DNA from: a virus
Strand: one strand, 5' to 3'
UHGV virus genome: UHGV-0287696
Length of the DNA stretch: 64,000 nucleotides
The notes under the pieces were generated by a model that searched no databases, had not been told where the DNA came from, and was given only the letters and a program-made list of their open reading frames with translations. Every line of letters begins with the position of its first letter. Within the stretch, counting starts at the first letter, position 1. Below are positions 3,571 through 63,202 of this stretch, piece by piece. The translations under genes were made by a program, and so were the position numbers.

Positions 3571-3684
3571 CCTAAACGACACGCAGAAGTCATTTAACCG
3601 TTAAGACGACTAATTACCCTTTAAAAAGAAAATCGCGTCAGAATGCGTTTTAGAGCGTTCTAGAGGGTATATGGATTCAAAAAG

Positions 3685-3713
3685 ATTTCAGATATATATT
3701 ACCTAGGTGAGAG
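3685..3713 (+). promoter_or_regulatory. conserved early-type promoter motif (TCAGATATATATTACCTAGGTGAGAG)
   Basis: One of five near-identical copies in the window, each 40-70 bp upstream of an RBS+ATG; TATATTAC core is what I recall as the phiKZ early promoter consensus. Confidence 0.55.
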
Positions 3714-3758
3714 TTTACGTAATACTCATTTATCGAATACCTAATTAGGAGTTATATC

Positions 3759-3956: not shown

Positions 3957-4772
3957 ATGATTACCATTAAAGATTATTTTCCGCGTGGACTGAGCAATGA
4001 AAACTTCGTTCCAACTGAAGACATTGCCATCGTAACAGAGTCTAGTGATAAGTCTTTTAAACTCTACTTGAGTACGGCAGCAGGAAAATCCACTCTTATC
4101 CTTCGCGAACCTGAGGTGATAAGCATCTGCTCGTTTGGGGGCGGTGTAGAAGGAACGATTAATTGGTTGAAATCCAGAATGCATCGTTTGCTTATCGTGA
4201 ACACCGATCCTGTGATTCGTTTACAGCAATTGAAATCGTTGAATGAAGTTATCGTCGGATTATTGGAACATGAAACGTTTGGTAATGTTGCGATTGCGGA
4301 AGAGATTAAATCTGTAGAACTAATCGAGTGGAGTGATATCGAATACGAACGTGCTGCGTTATTCGCAATGTACGGTGACGATAATCCTGTTGTGTTTGCA
4401 CAAACATTAGATAACGTTACAGTAACAGCGCGCGTATTGTTTGGCTTACAGCGTGTTGAGTTTGAACTGAAACACGTTTATGTAAGTAATGCTCCAGAGA
4501 TGGTGGAAACGTTGACTCGTGCGTTCGCTTACCCGTTAGACGGAGAATGGGAACAGCAGATTAATGAAGCGTTAGGTGCGATGCTGTTCTTAGCAGGCAC
4601 ACTAAGGAAAGAAGAGAAATTAAAAGGTCGTGTCTATCCAGAATACGATTTTGTTTGTGAAGAATGTGGAGCACAGTATCAAATACGTGTTCCTTTAACC
4701 GGCCTGACAATCCCGAAAGCCAACGTGCAATGTAAGGAATGTGGCCATGTTCAATACGTAGCGACTAAATAA
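3957..4772 (+). CDS. hypothetical protein with C-terminal zinc-ribbon (CxxC...CxxC)
   Basis: 271-aa ORF, RBS GGAGCA upstream; C-terminus FVCEECGAQ...CKECGH. Confidence 0.55.
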   Translation: MITIKDYFPRGLSNENFVPTEDIAIVTESSDKSFKLYLSTAAGKSTLILREPEVISICSFGGGVEGTINWLKSRMHRLLIVNTDPVIRLQQLKSLNEVIVGLLEHETFGNVAIAEEIKSVELIEWSDIEYERAALFAMYGDDNPVVFAQTLDNVTVTARVLFGLQRVEFELKHVYVSNAPEMVETLTRAFAYPLDGEWEQQINEALGAMLFLAGTLRKEEKLKGRVYPEYDFVCEECGAQYQIRVPLTGLTIPKANVQCKECGHVQYVATK

Positions 4773-4848: not shown

Positions 4849-4977
4849 ATGAAACATGAACTGTTGTTTCGACGGTTAAACGAGTTGTCCGTAAAACAGC
4901 TCGAATTTCAACGAAGGGTTAGTGAAATAGCGCAACCAACGTTAACACAGCCCAAGAAACACCCAGTCGGTAGTTGA
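4849..4977 (+). CDS. small protein, putative degenerate member 0 of tandem paralog array
   Basis: 42-aa ORF with RBS AGGGG; KQLEFQRRVSEI resembles KQIQFNQRMDEY of the ORF at 5860; rare codons present. Confidence 0.3.
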   Translation: MKHELLFRRLNELSVKQLEFQRRVSEIAQPTLTQPKKHPVGS

Positions 4978-5026
4978 GAGGGGGTAACAACCTAAAGGGG
5001 GAATGCGCCAACACTCCCCATAGGCG

Positions 5027-22316: not shown

Positions 22317-22960
22317 TGTTGATACCCGAGCCGAGACTTCCAGATAAGATGGTAAGAATCGCGGCAATAGACCCCGGTACGAGCCATCTTGGTATGGCAG
22401 TATTGGATTGGGAATACGGCAGCGATCAAGCCGAAGTGGTTTGGGCTGATACCATGCATGTATTAGACCCAACGCATCCAAATGCGTTTGCAGAGTGTGT
22501 CGGTAAGCGTGACGATCGTTTAGTTAAGCTCGAAGCTTGTTACCGTGAATTTCTTCGGATTGCCTGCCCAACTTTCGTTGCAACAGAGACACCGTTTATG
22601 CGGAGAGCAAAACTCTCCGCTTATGAATCTGGTGTCGAACTACAATTAATGCTGCGACGTACTTTGTGGGACGTTTACCCGGAGAAAATTTTACACGGCT
22701 TCAATCCTATCATTGTAAAATCATTCGTTGGGGTGGAAGCGAAGGGGACGGATAAAACCGATATGTTTCGGGCCGTGACCAAGCTCTACCGCGAACATGC
22801 TTTGTTTGATATTACAACGTTAGATGAGCACAGTATTGATGCTGTGGCGGTGGGAAATATTTTCGTCAGGGTAAATCTGTTAAACTTAAACAGCCTGCTA
22901 CCGCCTAAACAAAAGTCGACTAAGACCTCCAGGCGGAGAAGGCGTCGGAGAAAACGATAA
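22316..22960 (+). CDS. putative RuvC-like Holliday junction resolvase
   Basis: N-terminal RIAAIDPGTSHLGMAV matches the RuvC motif (I/L)GIDPG; later ...ETPFM... and DAVAVG acidic positions; C-terminal poly-Arg tail KTSRRRRRRRKR. Confidence 0.45.
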   Translation: MLIPEPRLPDKMVRIAAIDPGTSHLGMAVLDWEYGSDQAEVVWADTMHVLDPTHPNAFAECVGKRDDRLVKLEACYREFLRIACPTFVATETPFMRRAKLSAYESGVELQLMLRRTLWDVYPEKILHGFNPIIVKSFVGVEAKGTDKTDMFRAVTKLYREHALFDITTLDEHSIDAVAVGNIFVRVNLLNLNSLLPPKQKSTKTSRRRRRRRKR

Positions 22961-23538
22961 TGGAACCGAGCACACAAGCACTACCCACTGAAATACTTGA
23001 CTTATTGATCCAAGCTGGAAACAGAAAGTTAAGTAAAGAACAGTCTGAACAGTTAACGAAACTCTTGAAAGCGGCGTATGGGGATGACGTCAACGTCGAC
23101 GTCACCCGTTCTGGAACAAAGATTCTTTCCGACTTACGCCCTACGCTAATCGATAACTTAGGCAAACTGTCAGAACAATTCCATCAGCAGGCAACTGACG
23201 CTGTGGAATCTCTAGGGGATGAGATTAGCAAAGAAACCATGCTAACCTTATGGCCGAAATTATCCGCTCCCCAGAAGTTCATTATTGCCCTTCTGACGTT
23301 AGCGACGGTTGTTGTAACCGGTTTCCTGGGTTACGACACGCATCAACATTTTCCAGAAGACAGTTTAGATGTTCTGATTGTGACGTTGGTACCGTTCTTT
23401 GCGTTGGTTGTTTTTGCGACTTGGCCGATTAAAACGTTGGCTTATAAGTCTCTTGAGATAGCCACAAAAGTTGTTGAGAAGAAGCTTGAGAAATCAGGCC
23501 AGCTTAAGTCGAAGACAGAAAGCCCAACAACGAAATAA
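22960..23538 (+). CDS. hypothetical membrane protein
   Basis: Two hydrophobic segments (FIIALLTLATVVVTGFLGY, VLIVTLVPFFALVVFATWPI). Confidence 0.5.
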   Translation: MEPSTQALPTEILDLLIQAGNRKLSKEQSEQLTKLLKAAYGDDVNVDVTRSGTKILSDLRPTLIDNLGKLSEQFHQQATDAVESLGDEISKETMLTLWPKLSAPQKFIIALLTLATVVVTGFLGYDTHQHFPEDSLDVLIVTLVPFFALVVFATWPIKTLAYKSLEIATKVVEKKLEKSGQLKSKTESPTTK

Positions 23539-39685: not shown

Positions 39686-40207
39686 GTGATAGCGCGACTT
39701 GCGAGTTGGTTTAAGCAACGTCGGGCAAAGGCGGTCGAATGGCCGCCTATTACGCACGATGAAAAGGTGGTTGCTTTTCTGAATTATAACAAAGACTTGA
39801 AAAGATTAGGCGAGTTAATGCGCTTAACGGAACGTCAGGTTTTTGCTAAGATTTCAAGCAGCGCGTTACGTAAAGAAGTGTTCCCACACTTATCCTTTAT
39901 GGAACAAATCCATGCTGAAAGTGTGGAGAAATTTCTTTCGTTAGTAAATAATGAAACTCCACGTATACGGTACTCGGTTACGGATTCATCTGATGCTGTC
40001 GGTACGGTCAATTTCGGACGATTGTATCAGAGCATTAAAGACGTGGGCCATATACATGTTAAACGAGTATCAGAAACATCTGTAGTGATTTATCACCATA
40101 CTGAGCATGATTTGTTAGGGTGCGTTATAACACTAACAAATTTACATAGTTTTTACGTTGATTTACTTACAGGGTTTTATCCAGAACCATGGTGTTTTAT
40201 ACGATGA
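39686..40207 (+). CDS. hypothetical protein
   Basis: GTG start with GGAAGAGGA upstream. Confidence 0.4.
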   Translation: MIARLASWFKQRRAKAVEWPPITHDEKVVAFLNYNKDLKRLGELMRLTERQVFAKISSSALRKEVFPHLSFMEQIHAESVEKFLSLVNNETPRIRYSVTDSSDAVGTVNFGRLYQSIKDVGHIHVKRVSETSVVIYHHTEHDLLGCVITLTNLHSFYVDLLTGFYPEPWCFIR

Positions 40208-40413
40208 AAAGAGCTAATGGATACATCATCTCAGCGATTGTTTCAACCGTGCTGGTTGTGACGATGCTGATGTTTTATGTCCGTGTGTCAGATGACTCGC
40301 GCAAAGAAAGTCTTTATCGTGAGTGTATGTCAGGAAAGACCGTAGACGATCCGCGTTACGCCGAATTAGTAATGGCGTGTACGGAATACGCTAAACGAAT
40401 GGGAGATGGATGA
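40204..40413 (+). CDS. small membrane protein (69 aa)
   Basis: ATG 40204 (ATGA overlap); single TM segment GYIISAIVSTVLVVTMLMFYV; paralogous layout to the next ORF. Confidence 0.4.
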   Translation: MKRANGYIISAIVSTVLVVTMLMFYVRVSDDSRKESLYRECMSGKTVDDPRYAELVMACTEYAKRMGDG

Positions 40414-40610
40414 TGAAAATTTGGTTGCCGATTCTAGTTTTTATCCTTATCGCAGGTGCACTAGCAAGTGCTGAGTACGATAATCGTGTTCTAGAAACAA
40501 AACGTGAATTGTATCAGGATTGTATAAAGGATTACACACCCGGTACAGAGCTTCATGCACAGGCTGTGAAAAGTTGTGCGTTGATGGCTGAATCGCAGAC
40601 TCGTTCCTAA
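40410..40610 (+). CDS. small membrane or secreted protein (66 aa)
   Basis: MMKIWLPILVFILIAGALASA signal/TM, then a Cys-containing domain similar to the preceding ORF. Confidence 0.4.
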   Translation: MMKIWLPILVFILIAGALASAEYDNRVLETKRELYQDCIKDYTPGTELHAQAVKSCALMAESQTRS

Positions 40611-42271: not shown

Positions 42272-45200
42272 ATGGCTAAAGCGGTAAAGAAAATTCGTTT
42301 ACACGATTTACGTCCATACACCGGGGATATCGGTGAAGGCGTTTTACTTTTTTCGAAAGACGAAAGGGATTATCAGTTACCTGTCCGCGAGATTGTTGCG
42401 GATATTGACACCGTCAGAAACGCGGTTGCCGACGCACAAACGGCGGCGGCCAAATCGCAACAGTCTGCAACAGAAGCCACACAAGCAAAAGACTTAGCAG
42501 AAACCGCGAAGCAACAAACTGACACGTTAGCTTCCACCGTTAGCGAGCAAGCGGGAACCGTTGCCACTAAAACTGCTGAGGTTAGCAAAAAACACGCTGA
42601 AGTTTTAGCCGCGAAAACTGCCGTAGATACTGTATTACAGTCGGTAAATGAGAAAGCTCAAGCTGTCGCTACAAGCGAACAATCGGTGACGGCTGCAGCG
42701 GCTGATGTAACTAAGAAAGCAGAAACGGTTACGCAACAGGCCGGACAAGTTCAACAGACGGCTACCGGTGTCGAGAATACTGCGGCTTCAGTTGAGGCCA
42801 GTAAGGGCGCAGTGGAGAAGATTGCTGCACAGGTCGCGAAAGATAAAGAAAGTTCAGAAGGCGCAGCAACACGTTCGGAGTCAGCTGCCTTACGTGCGGA
42901 GAAAATCGCTGCGCAGGGCTTAATCGACGCTAGTACAACCGGTAAAGGTATCGTTAAACTTAACGATACACTGACTAGCGAATCCGTGACTGAGGCTGCC
43001 ACACCGTCCACGGTTAAACAGCTGAATGACGAATTACAGTTAAAAGCCAATAAACATTCGCCGAATTTTACGGGTAAACCGTCATCCCCAACACCCCCGA
43101 AAGATTCAAACGACACGAGTATTTCCACAACGGCCTGGGTGCGTGACGCGATTGCGGAACTGGTTGGTTCTTCACCCGAGACGTTAAATACCTTAGCGGA
43201 ATTAGCTGAGGCGTTAGGTAATGACCCTAACTTCGCAACAACGATTACTGGGGAACTTGCGCAGAAACAACCCCTCAGTCCGTTGCTCACCGCCATTGCC
43301 GCAGTCACCACAGCGGCAAACAAACTCATGTATTTCACTGGCAGTAATAAAGTCGGATTAACGGATTTTACAGAAACGGCTAGATCCTTGTTAGCGAAAG
43401 GGTCAACTGCGGATATCATCAATTTCTTGGGATTAAAAGCCACTGTAGATAAAGCGAATAGCGCGTTACAGAAAAACTCTAACGGCGCTGATATCCCAGA
43501 TAAAGAAATGTTTGCTCGCAATATCGGTCTGTCTCCTGACACCTATCTGCGTTTCCGTGGCGAAATGCCAGTAGATGCCGATATTAACACATTTGCTCCT
43601 GATGCCAATTACACAGGAACGTGGGCTAAGTCGACGTCAACCAATGCGTCGATGGCAAAACATTTCCCAGAAGACGGTGCAGTCGGTTATCTGGAAGTGT
43701 ATAAAGCCGGTAATTACAGTGGCGCACAGCGTTTTACCTGCCGTAATGGTAACGTGTACAACCGTATGCTGAGTGGCGCGTGGAATGGTGCCAATGGACC
43801 CTGGTCACCGTGGAGAATGGTAACTACTGGTGTACGTCCGTTATCTACCTCTATAGACTTGAACAGTTTGGGTGGCGCTGAGCATATGGGTAACTGGCGA
43901 AACTCGTCCAGTTCGCTGGCTGTTTTTAGCAGACATTACCCTGAAGAAGGTGGTGGCGCGCAAGGCGTACTAGAAGTAATGGAAGGTGGTCTTTTCGGAC
44001 GGTTGCAACGATACACCACACGTCGTGGTACAATGTATGTCCGTGGTTTGACCGCAACGTGGGATTCATCAAACCCGCAATGGGAAGATTGGATTCAGGT
44101 TGGTTATCAGACTGACGGTGCTTTCTTTAAAGCCAATTTTGACGATCTCGTTAAACCGGGACGTTTCAGTGTCACTGGTGAAGCAACTAATGGTCCACTT
44201 ACCGGTTCTTCTGGTGAAACCATATTAGGCGTTTGTGAAGTTACCTTACGCTTAGACGGTACAGGGGTCGAACAGAATTATACTACATACGGTACGGGTG
44301 TAGAAACTAAAGGTCGTAAATTCCAACGTATCCGTACGGGTAACGCTTGGAGCGATTGGCGCGAGATTTTCACATCATATTCGCTTCCGTTAGTATTAGG
44401 TATAGGCGGTGAACGCGCGAATGTTGATCCTTTAGACTGGCAAACCTATGACTTTAAACCGGGTGAGTTAATCTGTACACCACTTAACACCATGAAAAAC
44501 ATTCCTGCGGGAATGGATTGGGGTGTTATTGACGGTAACTTAGTTAGCATTCTGGTTGGTCCATCAGATGGCGCATCCTCAGGCCGGAGTATGTTGGTTT
44601 GGCGTAGTACGGTGTCTACTGCCAACTATCGATTCTTTGCAGTACGTATCGCCGGTGAGAAAGGTAGTCGTACGATTACACCACGACAGATGCCTGTATT
44701 GAATGCAGCACACACCTGGGCAGAAAAACAGACCTTTGCAAAAGGGTTAGCAGGTGAGTTAACAGGCAATGCTTCAACCGCAACGAAATTAAAGACCGCA
44801 CGTAGAATTGGTGGAGTCGCTTTCGACGGCAGTGGTGATATTAACCTCCCAGGTGTTAACCAACAGGGTAATCAAAACACCACGGGTAATGCCGGTACAG
44901 CCACTAAACTTCAAACCGCCAGAAATATTAACGGTGTGAGGTTCGATGGTTCTGCTGACATCAATATCAACACCCTGGTAGGTCGTGGTCGGGTTACTGC
45001 ACTAACCGGTTCAAACAAAGGTACGCCTGGTATTCAGATGTACGAAGTTTACAATAACGGTTATCCGACCGCTTATGGTAACTTGCTGCATTTGGGCGGT
45101 TCTACTGCATTAGGTGAAGGTGAACTGTTAATCGGTTGGTCGGGCACGAGTGGTGCGCACGCACCCGTTTATATTCGTAGTCGACGTGATACAGCGGATG

Positions 45201-46870
45201 CGCCGTGGTCAGATTGGGCACAAGTTTATACTGCCCGTGATAGTATTCCTGGTGTAAATACCACCGGTAATCAAGATACTACTGGTAACGCTGCTACCGC
45301 GACGAAACTGAAAACTGCTCGCAGAATCGGGGGCGTTACCTTTGACGGTACTGGGGATATCAATTTACCGGGGGTTAACCAGCAAGGTAACCAGAATACG
45401 ACAGGTAATGCAGCAACCGCTACTAAGTTACAAACAGCACGTAAGATCGGCGGTGTTAACTTTGACGGTTCGCAAGACATTAGTCTGCCCGGTGTGAACC
45501 AAACCGGTAACCAATCGACTACGGGGAATGCTGCGACAGCGACTAAGCTCCAGACTGCGCGAAATATAGGTGGCGTAGCTTTTGATGGTACTAAAGACAT
45601 CAACTTACCTGGCGTAAACCAAACGGGTAATCAGTCGACCACCGGAAACGCGGCCACTGCAACAAAATTGCAGACAGCGCGTACCATTAACGGTATCGCA
45701 TTTGACGGCACTAAAAACATCGAAATAACGGCTGAAAGTTTAAATCTTGGTCAAACTGTAGAATTGGCCGGTGGGTCATTGCAGAAGAAACAGAACGGTG
45801 CCGATATTCCAGATAAGAGAAAATTCTTACGAAATGTTGGTGCCGCGAACACAACAACTGTGTCTTTTAATGGTGGTGCCGGATGGTTCAAACTGGCAAC
45901 TGTAACGATGCCGCAAGCCAGTTCCGTGGTTTACATAAGCCTGATTGGTGGTGCAGGGTTTAACGTTGGTTCCCCGCATCAAGCAGGTATCTCTGAGCTG
46001 GTTCTGCGTGCAGGAAATGGGAATCCAAAAGGTATTACTGGTGCGTTATGGCGACTGACTTCAGTCGGCTTCGCTAATTTTGCATGGGTGAATACATCTG
46101 GTGACACTTACGATATTTATGTTGAAATAGGTAATTACGCCACCGGTGTTACTATTCAGTGGGATTACACTAGTAATGCCAACGTAACGATTCATACATC
46201 GCCAAGTTATACGGCTAATAAACCCGCAGGACTAACAGACGGTACCGTCTATCTGATTTACAGCACACACAACAAGCCTAACGCTGGTGACATCGGTGCG
46301 TTACCGTCAGGGGGCGGTACTATAGGTGGCGATTTAACCGTTAACGGTAAATTGGTCACTAAGTACCCTGATTTTCGAATCGCTTACGGCAACTACGGCT
46401 TTATGTTACGTAACGATGGTGCCAATACCTATTTCTTAGTAACCGACGCCGGTCAAGCTGCAACGGGTTCCTGGAACGGTCTACGTCCGTTGTATTTTAA
46501 TAATGCTAACGGTCAAGTAACCTTTGGTCATAACGTTACTGGCAGCGGTAACGGTTCGTTTAACGACGTACAGATTCGTTCTGACCGTCGTAACAAACGT
46601 AATCTGGTGAAACTAGATAAAGCTTTGGATCGGTTAGAGTTACTAACCGGTTATTTGTACGAAATTCAGCATCCTGACGACGGCTGGCAGACCTCTGTAG
46701 GTTTAATTGCCCAAGACGCATTAGAAGCGTTACCTGAACTTGTGTCTGAGGACGACGATGCCATTTCAGGCGAAAAACGTTTACGTCTAAACTACAATGG
46801 CGTTATTGCGCTGTTAGTAGAGGGGATGAAATCCCTTCGCCAAGAGCTTAAAGAGCTTAAGGAGAAATAA
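42272..46870 (+). CDS. tail fibre protein with Ala-rich N-terminal region, ~40-aa tandem repeats and C-terminal S74 intramolecular chaperone domain
   Basis: 1532 aa; repeats NxTGNAATATKLQTARxIGGVxFDGxxDINLPGV about seven times; C-terminus SDRRNKRNLVKLDKALDRLELLTGYLYE...GLIAQDALEALPELV is the classic S74 auto-cleaving chaperone signature. Confidence 0.8.
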   Translation: MAKAVKKIRLHDLRPYTGDIGEGVLLFSKDERDYQLPVREIVADIDTVRNAVADAQTAAAKSQQSATEATQAKDLAETAKQQTDTLASTVSEQAGTVATKTAEVSKKHAEVLAAKTAVDTVLQSVNEKAQAVATSEQSVTAAAADVTKKAETVTQQAGQVQQTATGVENTAASVEASKGAVEKIAAQVAKDKESSEGAATRSESAALRAEKIAAQGLIDASTTGKGIVKLNDTLTSESVTEAATPSTVKQLNDELQLKANKHSPNFTGKPSSPTPPKDSNDTSISTTAWVRDAIAELVGSSPETLNTLAELAEALGNDPNFATTITGELAQKQPLSPLLTAIAAVTTAANKLMYFTGSNKVGLTDFTETARSLLAKGSTADIINFLGLKATVDKANSALQKNSNGADIPDKEMFARNIGLSPDTYLRFRGEMPVDADINTFAPDANYTGTWAKSTSTNASMAKHFPEDGAVGYLEVYKAGNYSGAQRFTCRNGNVYNRMLSGAWNGANGPWSPWRMVTTGVRPLSTSIDLNSLGGAEHMGNWRNSSSSLAVFSRHYPEEGGGAQGVLEVMEGGLFGRLQRYTTRRGTMYVRGLTATWDSSNPQWEDWIQVGYQTDGAFFKANFDDLVKPGRFSVTGEATNGPLTGSSGETILGVCEVTLRLDGTGVEQNYTTYGTGVETKGRKFQRIRTGNAWSDWREIFTSYSLPLVLGIGGERANVDPLDWQTYDFKPGELICTPLNTMKNIPAGMDWGVIDGNLVSILVGPSDGASSGRSMLVWRSTVSTANYRFFAVRIAGEKGSRTITPRQMPVLNAAHTWAEKQTFAKGLAGELTGNASTATKLKTARRIGGVAFDGSGDINLPGVNQQGNQNTTGNAGTATKLQTARNINGVRFDGSADININTLVGRGRVTALTGSNKGTPGIQMYEVYNNGYPTAYGNLLHLGGSTALGEGELLIGWSGTSGAHAPVYIRSRRDTADAPWSDWAQVYTARDSIPGVNTTGNQDTTGNAATATKLKTARRIGGVTFDGTGDINLPGVNQQGNQNTTGNAATATKLQTARKIGGVNFDGSQDISLPGVNQTGNQSTTGNAATATKLQTARNIGGVAFDGTKDINLPGVNQTGNQSTTGNAATATKLQTARTINGIAFDGTKNIEITAESLNLGQTVELAGGSLQKKQNGADIPDKRKFLRNVGAANTTTVSFNGGAGWFKLATVTMPQASSVVYISLIGGAGFNVGSPHQAGISELVLRAGNGNPKGITGALWRLTSVGFANFAWVNTSGDTYDIYVEIGNYATGVTIQWDYTSNANVTIHTSPSYTANKPAGLTDGTVYLIYSTHNKPNAGDIGALPSGGGTIGGDLTVNGKLVTKYPDFRIAYGNYGFMLRNDGANTYFLVTDAGQAATGSWNGLRPLYFNNANGQVTFGHNVTGSGNGSFNDVQIRSDRRNKRNLVKLDKALDRLELLTGYLYEIQHPDDGWQTSVGLIAQDALEALPELVSEDDDAISGEKRLRLNYNGVIALLVEGMKSLRQELKELKEK
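44761..44990 (+). repeat. tandem coding repeats (block 1) within tail fibre gene
   Basis: Two ~120-bp units encoding GNASTATKLKTARRIGGVAFDG.. and GNAGTATKLQTARNINGVRFDG.. Confidence 0.6.
45250..45720 (+). repeat. tandem coding repeats (block 2, about four units of ~120 bp) within tail fibre gene
   Basis: Repeated ggtaa(c/t)ca..ac(c/t)acgggtaatgc.gc.ac.gc.ac.aa..t.ca.ac.gc encoding GNQxTTGNAATATKLQTAR. Confidence 0.65.
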
Positions 46871-57318: not shown

Positions 57319-58167
57319 ATGTCTCTTACGTCAAAACAGAAACTGCTAAAACTCATCAACACTGAAAACAATATTGTTCCGCCATTGACCTTCAGTGATG
57401 TTGATATCGGCGAACCTACTGGTACTGGGGTTGATACCCAGGTGGTTCTGACTTCTAAACTCAAAGGCGATGAGTCTACTACTTTAACTGTGACTTATCA
57501 TCGTCGTAATTTGCCCGAATACCTAACAGGTGAGTTGGTATTCGGTAACGATGGTGTTGTAACCGCTACAGATTTGCTTAATGCAATCAACGCAAAATAC
57601 GATTTAAATATCCTGCCGTCGGATATCGTTGATGCGAAAGTTGAAGGTGAAACCCATCAGCTTACCGCTAACGAGAAATCCTACGAATGGTGTGGCGAGG
57701 TGACACTTACGCTACGCGACCCTATTGATTTGGCTAAACTGTTACCTGTTACTCAATTAGAAAACCTGGTAGAGTATCCGTCCACTAAGAAAGGTAACGC
57801 AGCGGTTTATTCTTATCCAATTGACTTCACCGCAGAAAAAGATTACCTCGATCCGATTACCATTAACGACACTGTCGACCTGGCTGAGTTAGCCACTAAA
57901 CTGGTCAACGTCGTTGATGAGAAATGGGTAAGTGTACCTAAAAACGCTGCTAATAACCTCTACGGTGCTAAGGTTATCTACGATGGCCCTACCGCAGGTT
58001 ACGAAGGCGCAAATACGAAGTACACGCGTGTGCTGGTACTCGCACTCAGTGGACTGTGTGCTAACCTGACCGGTAATCTGTTAATCCACTTTAACGGTAC
58101 CGATCGTCCGAAGTCGAAGATTGAATTAGCTAAAACTAATTCGGTCTTACCGGGATTCTTAGATTAA
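57319..58167 (+). CDS. virion-type protein, member of recurrent domain family
   Basis: N-terminal LLKLINTENNIVPPLTFSDVDIGEP..VDTQVVLTSK..TVTYHRRNL..DLLNAINAKYDLNILPSDIVD matches the family signature. Confidence 0.5.
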   Translation: MSLTSKQKLLKLINTENNIVPPLTFSDVDIGEPTGTGVDTQVVLTSKLKGDESTTLTVTYHRRNLPEYLTGELVFGNDGVVTATDLLNAINAKYDLNILPSDIVDAKVEGETHQLTANEKSYEWCGEVTLTLRDPIDLAKLLPVTQLENLVEYPSTKKGNAAVYSYPIDFTAEKDYLDPITINDTVDLAELATKLVNVVDEKWVSVPKNAANNLYGAKVIYDGPTAGYEGANTKYTRVLVLALSGLCANLTGNLLIHFNGTDRPKSKIELAKTNSVLPGFLD

Positions 58168-58180
58168 GAGGATTACAGTA

Positions 58181-58657
58181 ATGACCAGTCAAGAAACTAT
58201 CTTCGACCTTATTAAAAAGGCTAACCCAGACGCTGAGCTCGACACCGCCAAAGTTACATTGGGTGAGCCCGTCGTAAGTACCGGTGCGTACAACACCGAA
58301 GTTACGGTTGCGTCAATTAAGAATCTCGGTTATGCTAATAAGCAAACGTTCCAGTATAACCGCATTGATGCAGGTTTGTATTTCCTCAACGTATTGCCGA
58401 AACTGTTAGTTGAATCAGCAACTACGACTGCGGACCTGTTGCCTGTAATTAACGAACAATATGGCTTAACCCTTACTGAAGACGACGTATGGGTAGAGCA
58501 GGTTGGTGAGTTACCGCTGGACGGCAGTACAATCGAGCACGGCATTTTCTTCCGTCCTGAGTGCCTAACCTGGGTCGGTGGTTTTACAGTGCGCGTTGCG
58601 CGTAAGCCGACTGTTGAAACACCGCCAGCTAATCCATCGCGCGCTAAGAAGAAATAA
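58181..58657 (+). CDS. virion-type protein, member of recurrent domain family
   Basis: IFDLIKKANPDAELDTAKVTLGEP..NTEVTVASIK..FQYNRIDAG..DLLPVINEQYGLTLTEDDVWV. Confidence 0.5.
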   Translation: MTSQETIFDLIKKANPDAELDTAKVTLGEPVVSTGAYNTEVTVASIKNLGYANKQTFQYNRIDAGLYFLNVLPKLLVESATTTADLLPVINEQYGLTLTEDDVWVEQVGELPLDGSTIEHGIFFRPECLTWVGGFTVRVARKPTVETPPANPSRAKKK

Positions 58658-58661
58658 CGAC

Positions 58662-58697
58662 AGGGTGGGGTAATCCCACCCTCTTTTCTTTTTTTGT
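58662..58697 (+). terminator. intrinsic terminator
   Basis: agggtggg-gtaat-cccaccct followed by cttttctttttttg. Confidence 0.7.
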
Positions 58698-58718: not shown

Positions 58719-59309
58719 ATGGCCGAACGTTGGACTAAAGAAGGTATTATTGCTTCGAAAACAGATTTAGAAGGCGGGTACGTAAACGACCCTGACGATA
58801 AAGGTGGGGAAACCTGTCACGGTGTAACACTAACAACTGCGCGCGAATACGGGTATAAAGGAAGAATGAAGGATCTGACCCGTGCGCAAGCGTTTGATAT
58901 TTACGATCGCGGTTGGTGGAAGAAACTTAAACTCGATGAGATTTTAGCTATCTCACCCTTACTCGCAGACCGGATGTTTGATTTTGCTATTAACTCTGGC
59001 CGCGTTAACTGCGTGAAATCGTTACAACGTATTCTCAACGTTTTAAATAACGAAGGGAAACTTTACGCAGATATTGACACCGACGGCGGTATGGGACCTA
59101 AAACGCTAGGTGCCCTGAATGCTTATCTGAATTACCGTAAAGACGAAGGATTAGGCATCTTAATCTTTGCCTTAATCTCACACCAGGTAACTTACTACAC
59201 AGAAATCTCCGAAAAGCGTAAGAAGAATGAAAAATTCGCTTACGGCTGGTACGCACGTGTGTTCAGGGAAATGCCGGATTATGTGGCGAAGGCGGGGTTA
59301 GTAAAATGA
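58719..59309 (+). CDS. endolysin, GH108-type N-terminal domain plus peptidoglycan-binding domain
   Basis: EGGYVNDPDDKGGETCHGVT is the GH108 signature (catalytic Glu in EGGY); C-terminal ...DTDGGMGPKTLGALNAYL resembles PG_binding_3; RBS AGAGGAG. Confidence 0.8.
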   Translation: MAERWTKEGIIASKTDLEGGYVNDPDDKGGETCHGVTLTTAREYGYKGRMKDLTRAQAFDIYDRGWWKKLKLDEILAISPLLADRMFDFAINSGRVNCVKSLQRILNVLNNEGKLYADIDTDGGMGPKTLGALNAYLNYRKDEGLGILIFALISHQVTYYTEISEKRKKNEKFAYGWYARVFREMPDYVAKAGLVK

Positions 59310-59410
59310 ACTGGTTTGCTAAACTCTTAGCGTTATTGTGGAAAGCGTTAACGTCTGGGCGGAAACGTAAAGACGAAAAGCGTGGATACGAATTTTTCTG
59401 GTTTCTATAA
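59306..59410 (+). CDS. small amphipathic peptide (34 aa) overlapping endolysin stop
   Basis: ATGA overlap; MNWFAKLLALLWKALTSGRKRKDEKRGYEFFWFL; below the track size cutoff. Confidence 0.3.
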   Translation: MNWFAKLLALLWKALTSGRKRKDEKRGYEFFWFL

Positions 59411-59425
59411 GGGAAGGTGTGGGTA

Positions 59426-60091
59426 ATGGAGAAGCTTCAATATAAACGTTTAGACAATAAGTGGTTTGTATTAACGGAGGATTACCATTATCCGTTTACG
59501 TTACGTGAAATTTATCACGACCACGTACACTTAGACCGTGCGGTTTATTTAACGGGTGTATTGCCTGACACACAACTGTGGTTAACGGCACCGAAAGGGT
59601 TCGTTACCGATTTAGCGTCGATTCCTGAACACCTCCAGGGAATCTTCCATCCTGACGGACCGTGGGCACCTGCGGCCTGCATTCACGACCTACTTTATCA
59701 AAAATGTAGTACGGAACGGAGCTATCCCATGACACCGGGTGGTAACGTTTCGCGTTTTATCGATAAAGAGTTCTCTGATTTAACGTTCCTGCGTATTATG
59801 CAGTCGTTGGAAATCTCGCCTTATATCTGCCAAACATTTTATAAGGCCGTCGTTGAATTCGGCTGGGATTCCTACGTAGATCCTAATGCAATGCCATCCT
59901 ACAACACTAACGCGTTTCGTACGTTAGATTACAATCGAAACTATTTATTCGTTCGCGAGTTTAAGGAACCTGCAATCCCTGACCACGAACGTATTGATAT
60001 CACCACAGATCAGCCCGTTAATGTCAAATACCTGAACATCAAACGTGCTTTTCTGTCTGGGAGGGAAGATGTTTCATCCAAATCCGAGTAA
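59426..60091 (+). CDS. DUF1353-like protein
   Basis: ATG 59426 (RBS GGGAAGG); PKGFVTDLASIP and AACIHDLLY match DUF1353 motifs as I recall them. Confidence 0.45.
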   Translation: MEKLQYKRLDNKWFVLTEDYHYPFTLREIYHDHVHLDRAVYLTGVLPDTQLWLTAPKGFVTDLASIPEHLQGIFHPDGPWAPAACIHDLLYQKCSTERSYPMTPGGNVSRFIDKEFSDLTFLRIMQSLEISPYICQTFYKAVVEFGWDSYVDPNAMPSYNTNAFRTLDYNRNYLFVREFKEPAIPDHERIDITTDQPVNVKYLNIKRAFLSGREDVSSKSE

Positions 60092-60584
60092 CTTTAAACT
60101 CAAAGAGTTAGTACCACAGTCTTATATTGCCAAATACGGCGATTCTGCAATTCGGTTTATGAATCCGCTGTTAATGATTTCGCTACAACAGATTCGTAAC
60201 CGTTTCGGTAGAATGGTCATTAACTCAACCGCTGCGCAACAGCGTGGCCTAAGAACCTTAGACTTCTTTATTAATCAAGAAAAGCCTAAAGGCGGTAACT
60301 ATAAACAACGTGCTTTACAACTCTACTCTGATTCAGGAAGTCAACACAAATTCGGTAACGCAATTGACGCAACGTTGTTGGACAGTACCGTAAAGCAGGT
60401 TCACGACTACATCGCTGCTAACCCTGATGAGTTTCCGTTCATTCACTTTATTGAATGTGACATCAGTTGGTTACACATCGACGTTCGTAACCAACCTAAC
60501 ATTACTTTCTGGTCACCGAATCGCGGTACTGTGAAAGTGGTTAAGCAAAAACCAATCGACTGGAGCGCCTTAGTCGAGATTTAA
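60069..60584 (+). CDS. peptidase M15-like (zinc D-Ala-D-Ala carboxypeptidase/endopeptidase fold), putative second peptidoglycan hydrolase
   Basis: ATG 60069; SQHKFGNAIDA fits SxHxxGxAxD and WLHIDVR fits the C-terminal H-x-D zinc ligand motif of M15 peptidases. Confidence 0.45.
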   Translation: MFHPNPSNFKLKELVPQSYIAKYGDSAIRFMNPLLMISLQQIRNRFGRMVINSTAAQQRGLRTLDFFINQEKPKGGNYKQRALQLYSDSGSQHKFGNAIDATLLDSTVKQVHDYIAANPDEFPFIHFIECDISWLHIDVRNQPNITFWSPNRGTVKVVKQKPIDWSALVEI

Positions 60585-60669
60585 CTATTTCTAAGGTGTT
60601 TATACCTTATTTCGTATAAAGACGCTTAGAATGCGTTCTACGCACGATTTGGCGGTTAAAATGAATATA

Positions 60670-60706
60670 CCCTACTCCTTAACGGGAGTAGGGTAGTTTT
60701 TATTAT
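60670..60706. terminator. hairpin terminator shared by convergent genes
   Basis: ccctactcc-ttaac-gggagtaggg followed by tagtttttatt; abuts the stop of the - strand lipoprotein gene. Confidence 0.6.
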
Positions 60707-61182
60707 TCCGCAGGATGGAGCATTGTTCCGGTGTCAGGAGCTACGCCTTCCTTACAGTGGAAGAAAGTAATGCCTTTACCATCACCCGTTTTATATTCTA
60801 AAGTAGAATACGCAAACGTTGGCGTTTTTGAAAGTAACCCATTTACACGGTAGTAACGTTGCCCCGTGATAGGATCGATATTTCCATTAACTTTACCTAA
60901 TAAATCTTTATAAAGTTGGGGTGACTCAATCTTACCATTTGGCCAAGTGGCTACCCAGTTAGCGCCAGTATCGATTACAGTTACTGAACCTAACATTAGG
61001 TTAGTCGAACTGACGACAGGTTTGTAATTTACAAAATCCTGCTCTACACCCATACAGGTGTAAATAACCATGTCGTGTGGCTCTACGGGTACAGTTGAGA
61101 ATTGGCCATTACTATTCGGTTGTAAAGCACATCCTGCTAATGAAAAAACACCAACCATAGCGATAAGAAAACGTTTTAGCAT
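60703..61182 (-). CDS. putative lipoprotein (moron; possible superinfection exclusion factor)
   Basis: Start at internal ATG (MLKRFLIAMVGVFSLAGC, lipobox LAGC) with RBS AAGGTG; only - strand gene inside a + strand block. Confidence 0.5.
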   Translation of the reverse strand: MLKRFLIAMVGVFSLAGCALQPNSNGQFSTVPVEPHDMVIYTCMGVEQDFVNYKPVVSSTNLMLGSVTVIDTGANWVATWPNGKIESPQLYKDLLGKVNGNIDPITGQRYYRVNGLLSKTPTFAYSTLEYKTGDGKGITFFHCKEGVAPDTGTMLHPAE

Positions 61183-61320: not shown

Positions 61321-61866
61321 ATGGCTAAAGCTTTCAATCTGCAGCTCATTGAAGCTGTTAAAGCTAAAAACCCTGAAACTGCTTCTAAACTGACCGTAAA
61401 TGATGTCGATTTCGGGGCCGTAGAAGCTTACACCCCGACCGGTAAAAGCGACGCCCGTAACACTAAAGTTGTCCTGACAGCGAAGAGCACGAGTGCTAAC
61501 TTCACCGGTAATAAAGAATTTCATTACATCCGTCTGGCATCCGCTAACCTGATTGGGGCCAAAGCTTACCAGCAGGAAGGTAGCCTCGACCTGGAAAATG
61601 ACGCCATCGTAACCAAACTCAATCAAGAAATGGTTACTAAAGGTTATGCCGATGACGCGTTCGCTGTAGGTGAACTCACTATTGAGAAAACTAATGGCGA
61701 GAGCGGTGCTAAGGTTTACACTATCAAAGTAAACGAAGGTCACATCAAATTCTTAGCCGGTACCATTGCTACCTTCACCTATACCAACCCGGTTCCTCCG
61801 AAGGTAGCTCTGAGCGGCCTGGAAGGTGAACTGGATGGTTTCACCGCACCGTCTCCTAAAGAGTAA
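61321..61866 (+). CDS. abundant virion-type protein, member of recurrent domain family
   Basis: Strongly optimised codons; QLIEAVKAKNPETASKLTVNDVDFGA..NTKVVLTAK..FHYIRLA..GELDGFTAPS. Confidence 0.55.
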   Translation: MAKAFNLQLIEAVKAKNPETASKLTVNDVDFGAVEAYTPTGKSDARNTKVVLTAKSTSANFTGNKEFHYIRLASANLIGAKAYQQEGSLDLENDAIVTKLNQEMVTKGYADDAFAVGELTIEKTNGESGAKVYTIKVNEGHIKFLAGTIATFTYTNPVPPKVALSGLEGELDGFTAPSPKE

Positions 61867-61869
61867 TTA

Positions 61870-61904
61870 AATCGGGGAGGGGGTAACCTCCCCGATATTT
61901 CTTT
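61870..61904 (+). terminator. intrinsic terminator
   Basis: atcggggagg-gggtaa-cctccccgat followed by atttcttt. Confidence 0.6.
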
Positions 61905-61931: not shown

Positions 61932-62462
61932 ATGGCAGCTACTAACCAGATGATGTTGGTCGCGCTTTACAATGCTGCTAACACCGAGCTACCACATCAG
62001 GTAACTGATAAAGAAGTGTCCTTTGGTCTCCCTACTGCGCTGGAAGGCGAAGGTAAGAATACCAAAGTTACCATGACTGCACTACCAGGTTCTGAGAATT
62101 TCAAAGGCGCAATCGAACTGAAATACGATCGTCTGGAACCGGGTGTTGTAGGGCGTATTGAACTAACTGACGATCTGTCTCGTTGGGAAGATCAAAACGA
62201 ATTGCGCGCATGGTTACAATATTACATCAATAAAGTTAAACCGGACGATGCTATTCATCCAGCGGACGTTTCTTATTCTACCGAAGACCAGAAAGACGAA
62301 CATGAAAACGTCACTCTGCGTACGGTAACGTGCACCGTTACTGAAAAGAACCTCCGTTATAAACCAGGTGTAATGGCAACTTTCGTAATTACGCCGAAAG
62401 TTGTTGATAATCGTATTGACCTGGCCACCACCAACGGTGAGCTGGACGGCTTTACGTCCTAA
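61932..62462 (+). CDS. abundant virion-type protein, member of recurrent domain family
   Basis: Optimised codons; MLVALYNAANTELPHQVTDKEVSFGLP..NTKVTMTAL..LKYDRLE..GELDGFTS. Confidence 0.55.
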   Translation: MAATNQMMLVALYNAANTELPHQVTDKEVSFGLPTALEGEGKNTKVTMTALPGSENFKGAIELKYDRLEPGVVGRIELTDDLSRWEDQNELRAWLQYYINKVKPDDAIHPADVSYSTEDQKDEHENVTLRTVTCTVTEKNLRYKPGVMATFVITPKVVDNRIDLATTNGELDGFTS

Positions 62463-62521
62463 GAAAAAAATAAAAAATACCTACCTCCTATTACGGGAGG
62501 TAGGTATACTATTTTTTTTTT
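62463..62521. terminator. bidirectional intrinsic terminator
   Basis: A-run, hairpin atacctacctcc-tattac-gggaggtaggtat, T-run; between convergent genes. Confidence 0.75.
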
Positions 62522-62530
62522 CGCTGTCGA

Positions 62531-63202
62531 TTACAGCCCTTGCTCTAACGCAAACGCTTTAATTGAATCGTAATCACGTGCTTCAGCCCAAGCCCTGACT
62601 TCTCTTTTCTGCTCAGACATTGCGTGGTGTAGTCTTTGATCGCGCTCAACGATTGCTGCCAGCAACGTCTTGCACTGTTCTAACGTAAACGGTTCGATAC
62701 GGGTGTTGTTAGCCGTTAACCAATACGCAGGCGCAGTTTCTGACTGGATATAACGACTCAGTGCTACCTGTGACTTCTCATCTGCCTGGAAAGTGAAATC
62801 ACCTACCTGAATCTCAGCATAGCGTGCATCTTGATAACGGAATTCCAAAGCGCTTAGAATTTTCTGAACATCGGTAAAGATGTACCGCACCGTGGAACGT
62901 AAACCTGTACGAATTTCTTCCAGGTCAATCCCCAACGTGTCGTTAACAAAGTCTTTCGCTTTCTGTAGCGTAAACCGTGCTTCGATTTCAGACATGTCGT
63001 AGTTACGCATTTGTTCCAATGCTTCGCGATCAGACATCCCATCAATCAACTTATAGTGCAGTAACGCACAAAACCCTGTACGGCCGTGATCTTCGCTACC
63101 GATTTTCTCCATGTAGTTACCATGGCGGTCAATCGGTAAATCGTGCGCAAAATAACGGCGACGGATTTCTTCTTTCGTTAAGCCTTCACCAGTAGCAGAC
63201 AT
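62531..63202 (-). CDS. hypothetical protein
   Basis: 223-aa - strand ORF with strong RBS AAAGGAG upstream of ATG 63202. Confidence 0.5.
   Translation of the reverse strand: MSATGEGLTKEEIRRRYFAHDLPIDRHGNYMEKIGSEDHGRTGFCALLHYKLIDGMSDREALEQMRNYDMSEIEARFTLQKAKDFVNDTLGIDLEEIRTGLRSTVRYIFTDVQKILSALEFRYQDARYAEIQVGDFTFQADEKSQVALSRYIQSETAPAYWLTANNTRIEPFTLEQCKTLLAAIVERDQRLHHAMSEQKREVRAWAEARDYDSIKAFALEQGL

Follow-up and report, generated by a model that had tools for sequence, protein, structure and literature searches.

A conserved four-gene cluster of SPN3US-like jumbo phages combines two putative peptidoglycan hydrolases with a cationic peptide and a phospholipase-like protein and probably aids host lysis

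We analysed a window of 64,000 nucleotides (nt) from the virus genome UHGV-0287696, which by its sequence is a relative of the giant (jumbo) phage SPN3US, of the Salmonella/Erwinia type, and which carries at positions 58719-60584 a cluster of four open reading frames (ORF1 to ORF4, Table 1). On balance, our analyses favour the view that the cluster is a conserved late operon whose products attack the bacterial envelope from within, acting on glycan, peptide and lipid, most likely as an aid to host lysis. The lipid component is suggested by ORF3, a member of the DUF1353 family: since another member of that family, TtaP of Salmonella Typhi, is a phospholipase A2 (PLA2), the cluster would target lipid as well as peptidoglycan. 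This phospholipase link had been overlooked in an earlier reading of the same DNA (hereafter the original prediction), which had described a lysis cassette with two peptidoglycan hydrolases. The cluster is already present in published SPN3US-like genomes, where it is uncharacterised and partly mis-annotated or unannotated, and its gene content suggests a new variant of the lysis cassette.

By the usual model, phages lyse Gram-negative hosts by means of a holin, an endolysin and a spanin, the last being replaced in rare cases by a disruptin. Annotation pipelines find neither holin nor spanin in SPN3US-type jumbo phages, and the composition of the operon suggests a lipid-directed step in lysis. 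The operon also provides a phage context for the pairing of TtsA and TtaP in typhoid-toxin secretion, where perturbation of the outer membrane is required. Besides that, its small soluble enzymes and its peptide of 34 amino acids (aa) are candidate antibacterial parts against Enterobacteriaceae.

All four ORFs of the original prediction were borne out, on one strand, and its domain assignments (GH108 plus peptidoglycan binding, DUF1353, and zinc motifs of the M15 type) proved correct by Pfam, motif columns and homologues. A strong Shine-Dalgarno sequence (AAGAGGAG) stands ahead of ORF1, the ATG of ORF2 overlaps the stop codon of ORF1 as ATGA, the ATG of ORF3 follows 15 nt past the stop of ORF2, and the ATG of ORF4, preceded by GGGAGGGAAG, opens a 23-nt overlap with the 3' end of ORF3. 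The start of ORF3 at the ATG at 59426 is backed by the N-termini of its homologues; a GTG at 59417 is open as well. Terminator-like hairpins flank the unit on both sides, one closing off the virion-protein genes upstream, at a distance of 36 nt from the ATG of the endolysin gene, the other ending the four-ORF unit between the M15-like gene (plus strand) and a lipoprotein gene (minus strand). Given the ATGA overlap, the 15-nt gap, the 23-nt overlap and the flanking hairpins, the four ORFs look like one compact transcription unit, in which we propose that ORF2 is translationally coupled to the endolysin gene and ORF4 to the DUF1353 gene.

The product of ORF1 matches Pfam Glyco_hydro_108 with an E-value of 1e-23 (84.1 bits against a cut-off of 21.2), its C-terminus matches PG_binding_3 (PF09374; 1.6e-16, above the curated cut-off), and among phage families it matches the endolysins of PHROG 315 (2.6e-43). 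Its best solved relative is TtsA (PDB 6v40), which shares this two-domain architecture and aligns with residues 6-179 at 46.6% identity over 174 aa (E 1e-44); identity to Sen1395 (PDB 6v3z) is 45.5%. Residues 17-30 (LEGGYVNDPDDKGG) align with REGGYVDHPDDRGG of TtsA, and the N-terminal EGGY motif is present, the glutamate of which we take to be the catalytic residue. These similarities point to a muramidase of the TtsA type that would cut glycan strands.

ORF3 was assigned to DUF1353 with an E-value of 1.5e-14 (53.8 bits, the cut-off being 22.5). Across 39 aligned members of the family its residues H87, D118, G58, D62, S65 and P67 are invariant, and D88 and Y91 nearly so; the resulting HDxxY...D pattern presumably resembles that of group XIV PLA2s. 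Structural modelling suggests a helical core superposable on the group XIII/XIV secreted PLA2s, and a PLA2 structure was matched at 25% identity. TtaP, the DUF1353 protein of the typhoid-toxin islet, has been shown experimentally to be a PLA2 hydrolysing the sn-2 position, with H70, D71 and D85 as catalytic residues, and is distant kin of the group XIV secreted enzymes (PMC11525133). ORF3 shares the DUF1353 family and, as far as the family alignment suggests, an HD...D signature with TtaP and is longer (221 against 125 aa), having extra N- and C-terminal parts that are specific to the jumbo-phage clade. We thus regard it as a TtaP-family protein with a probable PLA2-like activity. Against PDB, a single-sequence phmmer search with ORF3 returned noise only and its family profile no match, and literature searches on DUF1353 or phospholipases in phage lysis, on SPN3US lysis genes and on lipases of early phage infection (EPI) vesicles yielded nothing relevant beyond the TtaP study (PMC11525133).

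ORF4 gave no Pfam match at E <= 0.1, hence no direct match to an M15 family, and none in NCBIfam, where all matches fell below the cut-offs. Against PDB, a single-sequence phmmer search returned noise only, and the profile only a spurious A32 match and VanX at an E-value of 1.3. Among phage families it matches PHROG 894 'endolysin' (3.6e-28), and of its 25 homologues 16 match Peptidase_M15_3 (PF08291, best 6.8e-8) and 11 match Peptidase_M15_4 (PF13539). The two motifs that had originally been read in it are real: SxHxxGxAxD (SQHKFGNAID) and HxD (WLHID) fall on the invariant columns H93, G96, A98, D100, H136 and D138, to which E129 and W134 can be added (24-25 sequences), and H93, D100 and H136 form the zinc-ligand pattern H-x6-D plus a distal histidine. 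The modelled structure agrees with the Hedgehog/DD-peptidase fold. As ORF4 has no Pfam match of its own, the designation 'M15-like' rests on homologues, motifs and fold, which together suggest that it is an M15-clan zinc peptidase of LAS fold, nearest to Peptidase_M15_3/M15A and presumably active as such. Compared with the M15 endolysins and LAS peptidases (Ply500, T5 Lys, LysB4, the Zn DD-peptidase of S. albus, VanXY and MepK-type Peptidase_M15_3), ORF4 has diverged too far to match Pfam directly and lacks a cell-wall-binding domain, and its catalytic arrangement is H-x-D, as in PF08291, rather than [ED]-x-x-H.

The amphipathic 34-aa ORF that the original prediction had placed on the ATGA overlap is present and conserved in other lineages. 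Its product (MNWFAKLLALLWKALTSGRKRKDEKRGYEFFWFL) combines a predicted N-terminal amphipathic helix, an RKRK cluster and an aromatic tail, with a net charge of +5, and the hydrophobic moment over residues 2-15 is 0.51. Hydropathy and lipoboxes were predicted throughout with simple scripts of our own, using the mean Kyte-Doolittle value over 19 residues (KD19) and a threshold of 1.6 for a transmembrane domain (TMD). The best KD19 mean of ORF2 is 0.51, so that the peptide is too polar for a transmembrane helix, and a role as a transmembrane holin was ruled out. Orthologues overlapping the endolysin stop codon occur in Asesino (annotated as gp172), phiEaH2 and SPN3US (unannotated) and keep an NWF...AL...RRKR pattern.

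An alternative that we consider very improbable is that ORF2 does not function as a peptide, being a mere coupling or spacing element between the endolysin and DUF1353 genes, or a decayed remnant. The ORF is indeed very short and its Shine-Dalgarno sequence weak (GGCGGGG), Machinavirus-type and CR5-type relatives have no such peptide, and in the window lineage its C-terminus appears to be the remnant of a second overlapping ORF that was truncated by deletion. Against this stand the motif NWF..L...[WG][KR]AL....R[KR]KR, kept across lineages whose flanking proteins are only ~60% identical, and the ratio of nonsynonymous to synonymous polymorphism (pN/pS), which among six closely related, and hence non-independent, window-lineage sequences is 0.08 in frame as opposed to 0.95 and 1.16 out of frame. 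In the same sample, values for neighbouring genes were 0.04-0.11. A value far below those of the other frames, which are near 1, indicates purifying selection, and by these sequence comparisons ORF2 is a real gene rather than a chance ORF.

A functional peptide of this kind recalls the disruptins, the founding member of which, phiKT gp28, is a cationic lysis protein resembling antimicrobial peptides that replaces the spanins and is encoded between endolysin and holin (10.1101/515445). The cut-offs used in screening for disruptins are a length below 80 aa and a charge of at least +4 (10.1101/515445), and ORF2 (34 aa, +5) lies within both, besides being amphipathic, devoid of a signal and adjacent to the endolysin. 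Like gp28, it is thus small, cationic, predicted to be amphipathic and helical, without signal sequence and next to an endolysin gene; unlike gp28 (56 aa, +7), with which it has no sequence similarity, it consists of one helix and an aromatic tail.

The cluster is conserved among distant relatives of the window. A megablast search of the phage collection returned nothing close, only two fragments of 75% identity, and blastn in the sensitive 'distant' mode matched 71 jumbo phages at ~68% identity, which are Salmonella SPN3US-like, Erwinia Asesino/phiEaH2-like and Cronobacter CR5-like phages. The same genes recur in uncultured IMG/VR contigs 220-225 kb in length, where the proteins are 94-98% identical. 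In SPN3US the syntenic genes are SPN3US_0156 to SPN3US_0158, and the order endolysin, small ORF or ORFs, DUF1353, with or without M15, is kept in Seoulvirus, Erskinevirus, Machinavirus and uncultured relatives.

Every GH108-bearing relative examined has at least one tiny, putatively membrane-active ORF between the endolysin and DUF1353 genes. In Asesino, phiEaH2 and SPN3US the NWF peptide is overlapped in another frame by a second amphipathic basic peptide (type B, SGFFKLLRAIFxRRV), and in SPN3US and the Machinavirus-type contigs an ORF of 30-52 aa (type C), marked by the motif DDDPPP and by a single clear TMD, abuts or overlaps the start of DUF1353. Most of these type B and type C ORFs are unannotated; tiny ORFs lie at 4388-4573 and 4537-4629 in the SPN3US locus (L001), at 3613-3741 in that of Asesino (L004) and at about 4850-5010 in loci L013-L017. 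The N-terminus of SPN3US type B resembles that of Machinavirus type C, which suggests an evolution by frame-shift or fusion. A fusion of the type C peptide to DUF1353 in locus L015 was considered and rejected, the two being in different frames. The window lineage itself has only the first (NWF) peptide, type B having been truncated by deletion and the single-TMD ORFs of 30-52 aa being absent.

With regard to where the products act, ORF1, ORF3 and ORF4 have no predicted signal peptide or TMD, their KD19 values being at most 1.2 (1.20 for ORF1, which has no hydrophobic segment), and this fits cytoplasmic proteins that could reach their substrates only through a membrane lesion. A virion-associated function in entry, which had been offered as an option for one of the two hydrolases, found no support. 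In proteomic analyses of SPN3US virions gp156 and gp157 were never detected, and the M15-like gp158 was represented by 2-3 spectra in two preparations, with none from tailless particles or from particles lacking the virion RNA polymerase; a later SPN3US study found gp158 absent from wild-type virions and judged it a non-specific contaminant. A virion or entry role of the M15-like protein was rejected on these data. Lacking predicted export signals and apparently not being virion components, the enzymes most likely act from within.

A broader structural explanation would assign the DUF1353 protein, and perhaps the M15-like protein, to tail or tail-fibre assembly or to entry, leave only the GH108 enzyme as lytic, and treat their adjacency as a by-product of location in a structural module. 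It would agree with the label 'tail assembly chaperone' of PHROG 1158, to which the ORF3 family belongs, with the DUF7941 virion-protein paralogues surrounding the cluster, with the tail-fibre and fibre-assembly families upstream of DUF1353 in small phages, with a DUF4376 protein directly before DUF1353 in CR5, and with the few spectra of gp158 in SPN3US virions that were missing from tailless particles. We nevertheless consider it improbable. A literature search found no experimental basis for the 'chaperone' label, and the invariant HD...D residues, the modelled PLA2 match and the PLA2 activity of TtaP argue for an enzyme, while gp157 was never seen in virions and gp158 was dismissed by the authors themselves. 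Moreover, a holin is the commonest downstream neighbour of DUF1353 in smaller phages, following it directly in 9 of 48 loci, and the genes upstream of it include amidase/endolysin families (three family rows, each with one member). Across the relatives compared, DUF1353 is therefore the constant member of the cluster, standing at the boundary of tail and lysis modules.

If the cluster does aid lysis, its four products would be synthesised as cytoplasmic proteins lacking export signals and would act at the end of infection, once a membrane lesion has given them access. The muramidase would cut the glycan and the M15/LAS peptidase the peptide bonds, so that the sacculus would be dismantled, and the disruptin-like cationic peptide, the phospholipase, or both, would destabilise membranes, plausibly the outer membrane. 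Such a role of ORF2 and ORF3 would be the counterpart of the external cationic peptides or bile salts needed by TtsA for typhoid-toxin release, TtsA being a muramidase required for secretion of the toxin that works only together with an outer-membrane perturbant. As in the window, GH108 and DUF1353 proteins are encoded together in the typhoid-toxin islet, neither with a secretion signal. Unlike the islet, the window genes belong to a lytic jumbo phage and lie in an operon that also encodes a cationic peptide and an M15 peptidase; the islet, for its part, causes no lysis, in contrast to the role proposed here. That a phage operon places a cationic peptide next to enzymes resembling TtsA and TtaP makes the parallel suggestive, which is not to say proof.

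Among phage cassettes, lambda S-R-Rz/Rz1 and phiKZ gp141-gp144 likewise cluster the endolysin with small overlapping or coupled ORFs and comprise a soluble endolysin dependent on a lesion in the membrane. The window cluster differs from both in having no holin, i-spanin or o-spanin and, in their place, one more peptidoglycan hydrolase along with a lipase-like enzyme; its endolysin is of the GH108 family, whereas that of phiKZ is an SLT enzyme. Mycobacteriophage LysB, which is lipolytic and encoded beside the endolysin, detaches the outer mycomembrane to complete lysis. The likeness of LysB to ORF3 is one of concept only, a phage lipid esterase beside an endolysin, as LysB is a serine esterase of cutinase-like fold that acts on mycolyl-arabinogalactan in a different host envelope.

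Several points weigh against a role of the operon in lysis. The cluster and its vicinity yielded no holin, Asesino-type phages have no M15 gene, which makes M15 dispensable, and CR5/Phobos-type phages keep DUF1353 and M15 without GH108, beside a DUF4376 (tail-fibre-associated) gene. The upstream neighbours of DUF1353 in small phages (48-50 phages) are mostly tail-fibre genes, and deletion of TtaP in S. Typhi gave no envelope phenotype. The equivalence of H87, D88 and D118 of ORF3 with H70, D71 and D85 of TtaP is one that we infer, as we infer the functions of all four genes in every phage that carries them. Finally, our own genome scan showed that SPN3US-type relatives hold a second candidate envelope locus ~40-44 kb downstream of the cluster (Table 1). 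That locus might serve as the main lysis system, as in phiKZ, whose canonical cassette consists of spanins, a holin, a regulator and an SLT endolysin (PMC12894885).

The distal locus encodes an SLT transglycosylase with a cleavable signal peptide (186027-186749 in SPLA1a), an 88-aa protein with two TMDs, and an N-terminal-TMD coiled-coil protein followed by a lipobox lipoprotein, the last two resembling an i-/o-spanin pair. Conserved copies of the spanin-like TMD protein occur in 73 jumbo-phage records, and in contigs of the window lineage the protein is encoded ~44 kb from the cluster; a locus search with the single protein matched SPN3US only, and the window-lineage copies were found by alignment. 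In all four window-lineage contigs the partner has kept its signal peptide and lost the lipobox cysteine (VGLVSN[SG]YG) and therefore does not qualify as a canonical o-spanin in this lineage.

These data bear on the possibility that the GH108/PLA2/M15 operon is accessory, lysis being brought about elsewhere by a phiKZ-like system and the operon boosting or broadening envelope breakdown, for instance in LD-crosslinked or stationary-phase walls. The gene content of the distal locus in SPLA1a and SPN3US, the wide conservation of its TMD protein, also in the window lineage, and the similar logic of the phiKZ cassette would all agree with it, as would the absence of M15 from Asesino-type and of GH108 from CR5-type phages and the specificity of TtsA for LD-crosslinked peptidoglycan. 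However, the partner lacks its lipobox cysteine in 4 of 4 window-lineage contigs, the genes of the distal locus have neither a lysis annotation nor a family match, and a cleavable signal peptide on the SLT enzyme is atypical for a timed endolysin. We regard an accessory role as rather unlikely; it overlaps with the preferred role in lysis and is partly compatible with it rather than exclusive.

A stronger version of the lysis role, which we put forward only tentatively and consider possible rather than probable, would make DUF1353 an unrecognised class of phage lysis effector. In this scenario the PLA2s, together with a co-encoded cationic micro-peptide, would open the membrane or membranes to the soluble GH108 muramidase and so substitute for, or support, spanins or holins, and TtsA/TtaP would be a domesticated remnant of the module. 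The loss of the spanin-like lipobox in the window lineage may be set alongside this scenario, which, if true, would provide a direct, testable model for the function of TtaP.

The original prediction had seen no holin or spanin pair beside the cluster, and the hydropathy and lipobox scan agrees: no protein with a TMD or a lipobox is encoded inside the cluster, and in the 64-kb window neither a holin nor a spanin-like pair of N-terminal-TMD protein and lipoprotein was found. In a Pharokka-annotated complete SPN3US-like genome no holin or spanin was annotated anywhere. The only neighbour of the cluster with a TMD or a lipobox, and the only lipoprotein of the window, is the product of the convergent gene for a predicted outer-membrane lipoprotein (Table 1). 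It is syntenic with the cluster in SPN3US- and Asesino-type phages; among the loci compared it is adjacent in L001-L012, displaced in L013-L017 and absent nearby in L018-L020. Its membership of the module is uncertain, and immunity, hydrolase inhibition or superinfection exclusion are guesses at its role. As an o-spanin it was rejected, having no TMD partner, lying on the opposite strand and comprising a mature part of 140 aa.

Table 1. Position and description of the features of the cluster, its surroundings and the distal locus.
Feature	Position	Strand	Description
ORF1	58719-59309	+	196 aa; GH108 muramidase (putative) with C-terminal PG_binding_3; TtsA/Sen1395-type endolysin
ORF2	59306-59410	+	34-aa cationic peptide MNWFAKLLALLWKALTSGRKRKDEKRGYEFFWFL
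ORF3	59426-60091	+	221 aa; DUF1353, TtaP-family, PLA2-like; no export signal
ORF4	60069-60584	+	171 aa; probable LAS-fold (Hedgehog/DD-peptidase) zinc peptidase, M15 clan; no export signal
Terminator-like GC hairpin and T-run	58662-58682	+	9-pair stem, 6 GC pairs, CTTTTCTTTT tail
Bidirectional terminator-like hairpin	60668-60695	both	12-pair and 11-pair stems, T-runs on both strands
Predicted outer-membrane lipoprotein	60703-61182	-	159 aa, lipobox LAGC, Ala at +2; PHROG 9559 of unknown function, 2.4e-66
Distal locus	SPLA1a OR413578.1 186027-191945 (L088 36027-41945); window lineage L099 2560-8963		Outside the window

Two small membrane proteins of the window that had been suggested as further holin or spanin candidates (40189-40413 and 40410-40610) are adjacent paralogues, each with an N-terminal TMD or signal and a domain of ~45 aa with two conserved cysteines. 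They have no family (PHROG) matches and lie 18 kb from the cluster, and no link to lysis was found. A similar protein of 69 aa is encoded in SPLA1a (115445-115654).

The operon is embedded among DUF7941 paralogues annotated as 'virion structural protein' (57319-58167, 58181-58657, 61321-61866 and 61932-62462), the SPN3US counterparts of which belong to the large family of head-protein paralogues, with gp160 abundant in heads. Further strong hairpin terminators, one of them bidirectional, lie between the short DUF7941 genes at 61871-61896 and 62477-62507, and a 5.4-kb stretch holds 11 terminator-like sites, compared with 4.8 expected from shuffled sequences. A DUF4376-type gene (62531-63202, minus strand; PHROG 8169, with weak matches to tail-fibre PHROGs) is found inverted 2 kb downstream of the operon, and in CR5-type phages its homologue stands directly upstream of DUF1353 on the same strand (L019, 4273-4929). 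The linkage of DUF4376 and DUF1353 is recurrent, the same PHROGs being found upstream of DUF1353 in small phages as well. Elsewhere in the window, a 192-aa protein (22960-23538; PHROG 8722 of unknown function) has two strong hydrophobic segments near residues 101-155 and a homologue in SPLA1a (97546-98118) beside a RuvC-like resolvase gene, and a tail-fibre-like protein of 1532 aa (42272-46870) contains several near-identical repeats of the form NQ.GNQ.TTGNA.TATKLQTAR.I.GV.FDG..DI.LPGV.

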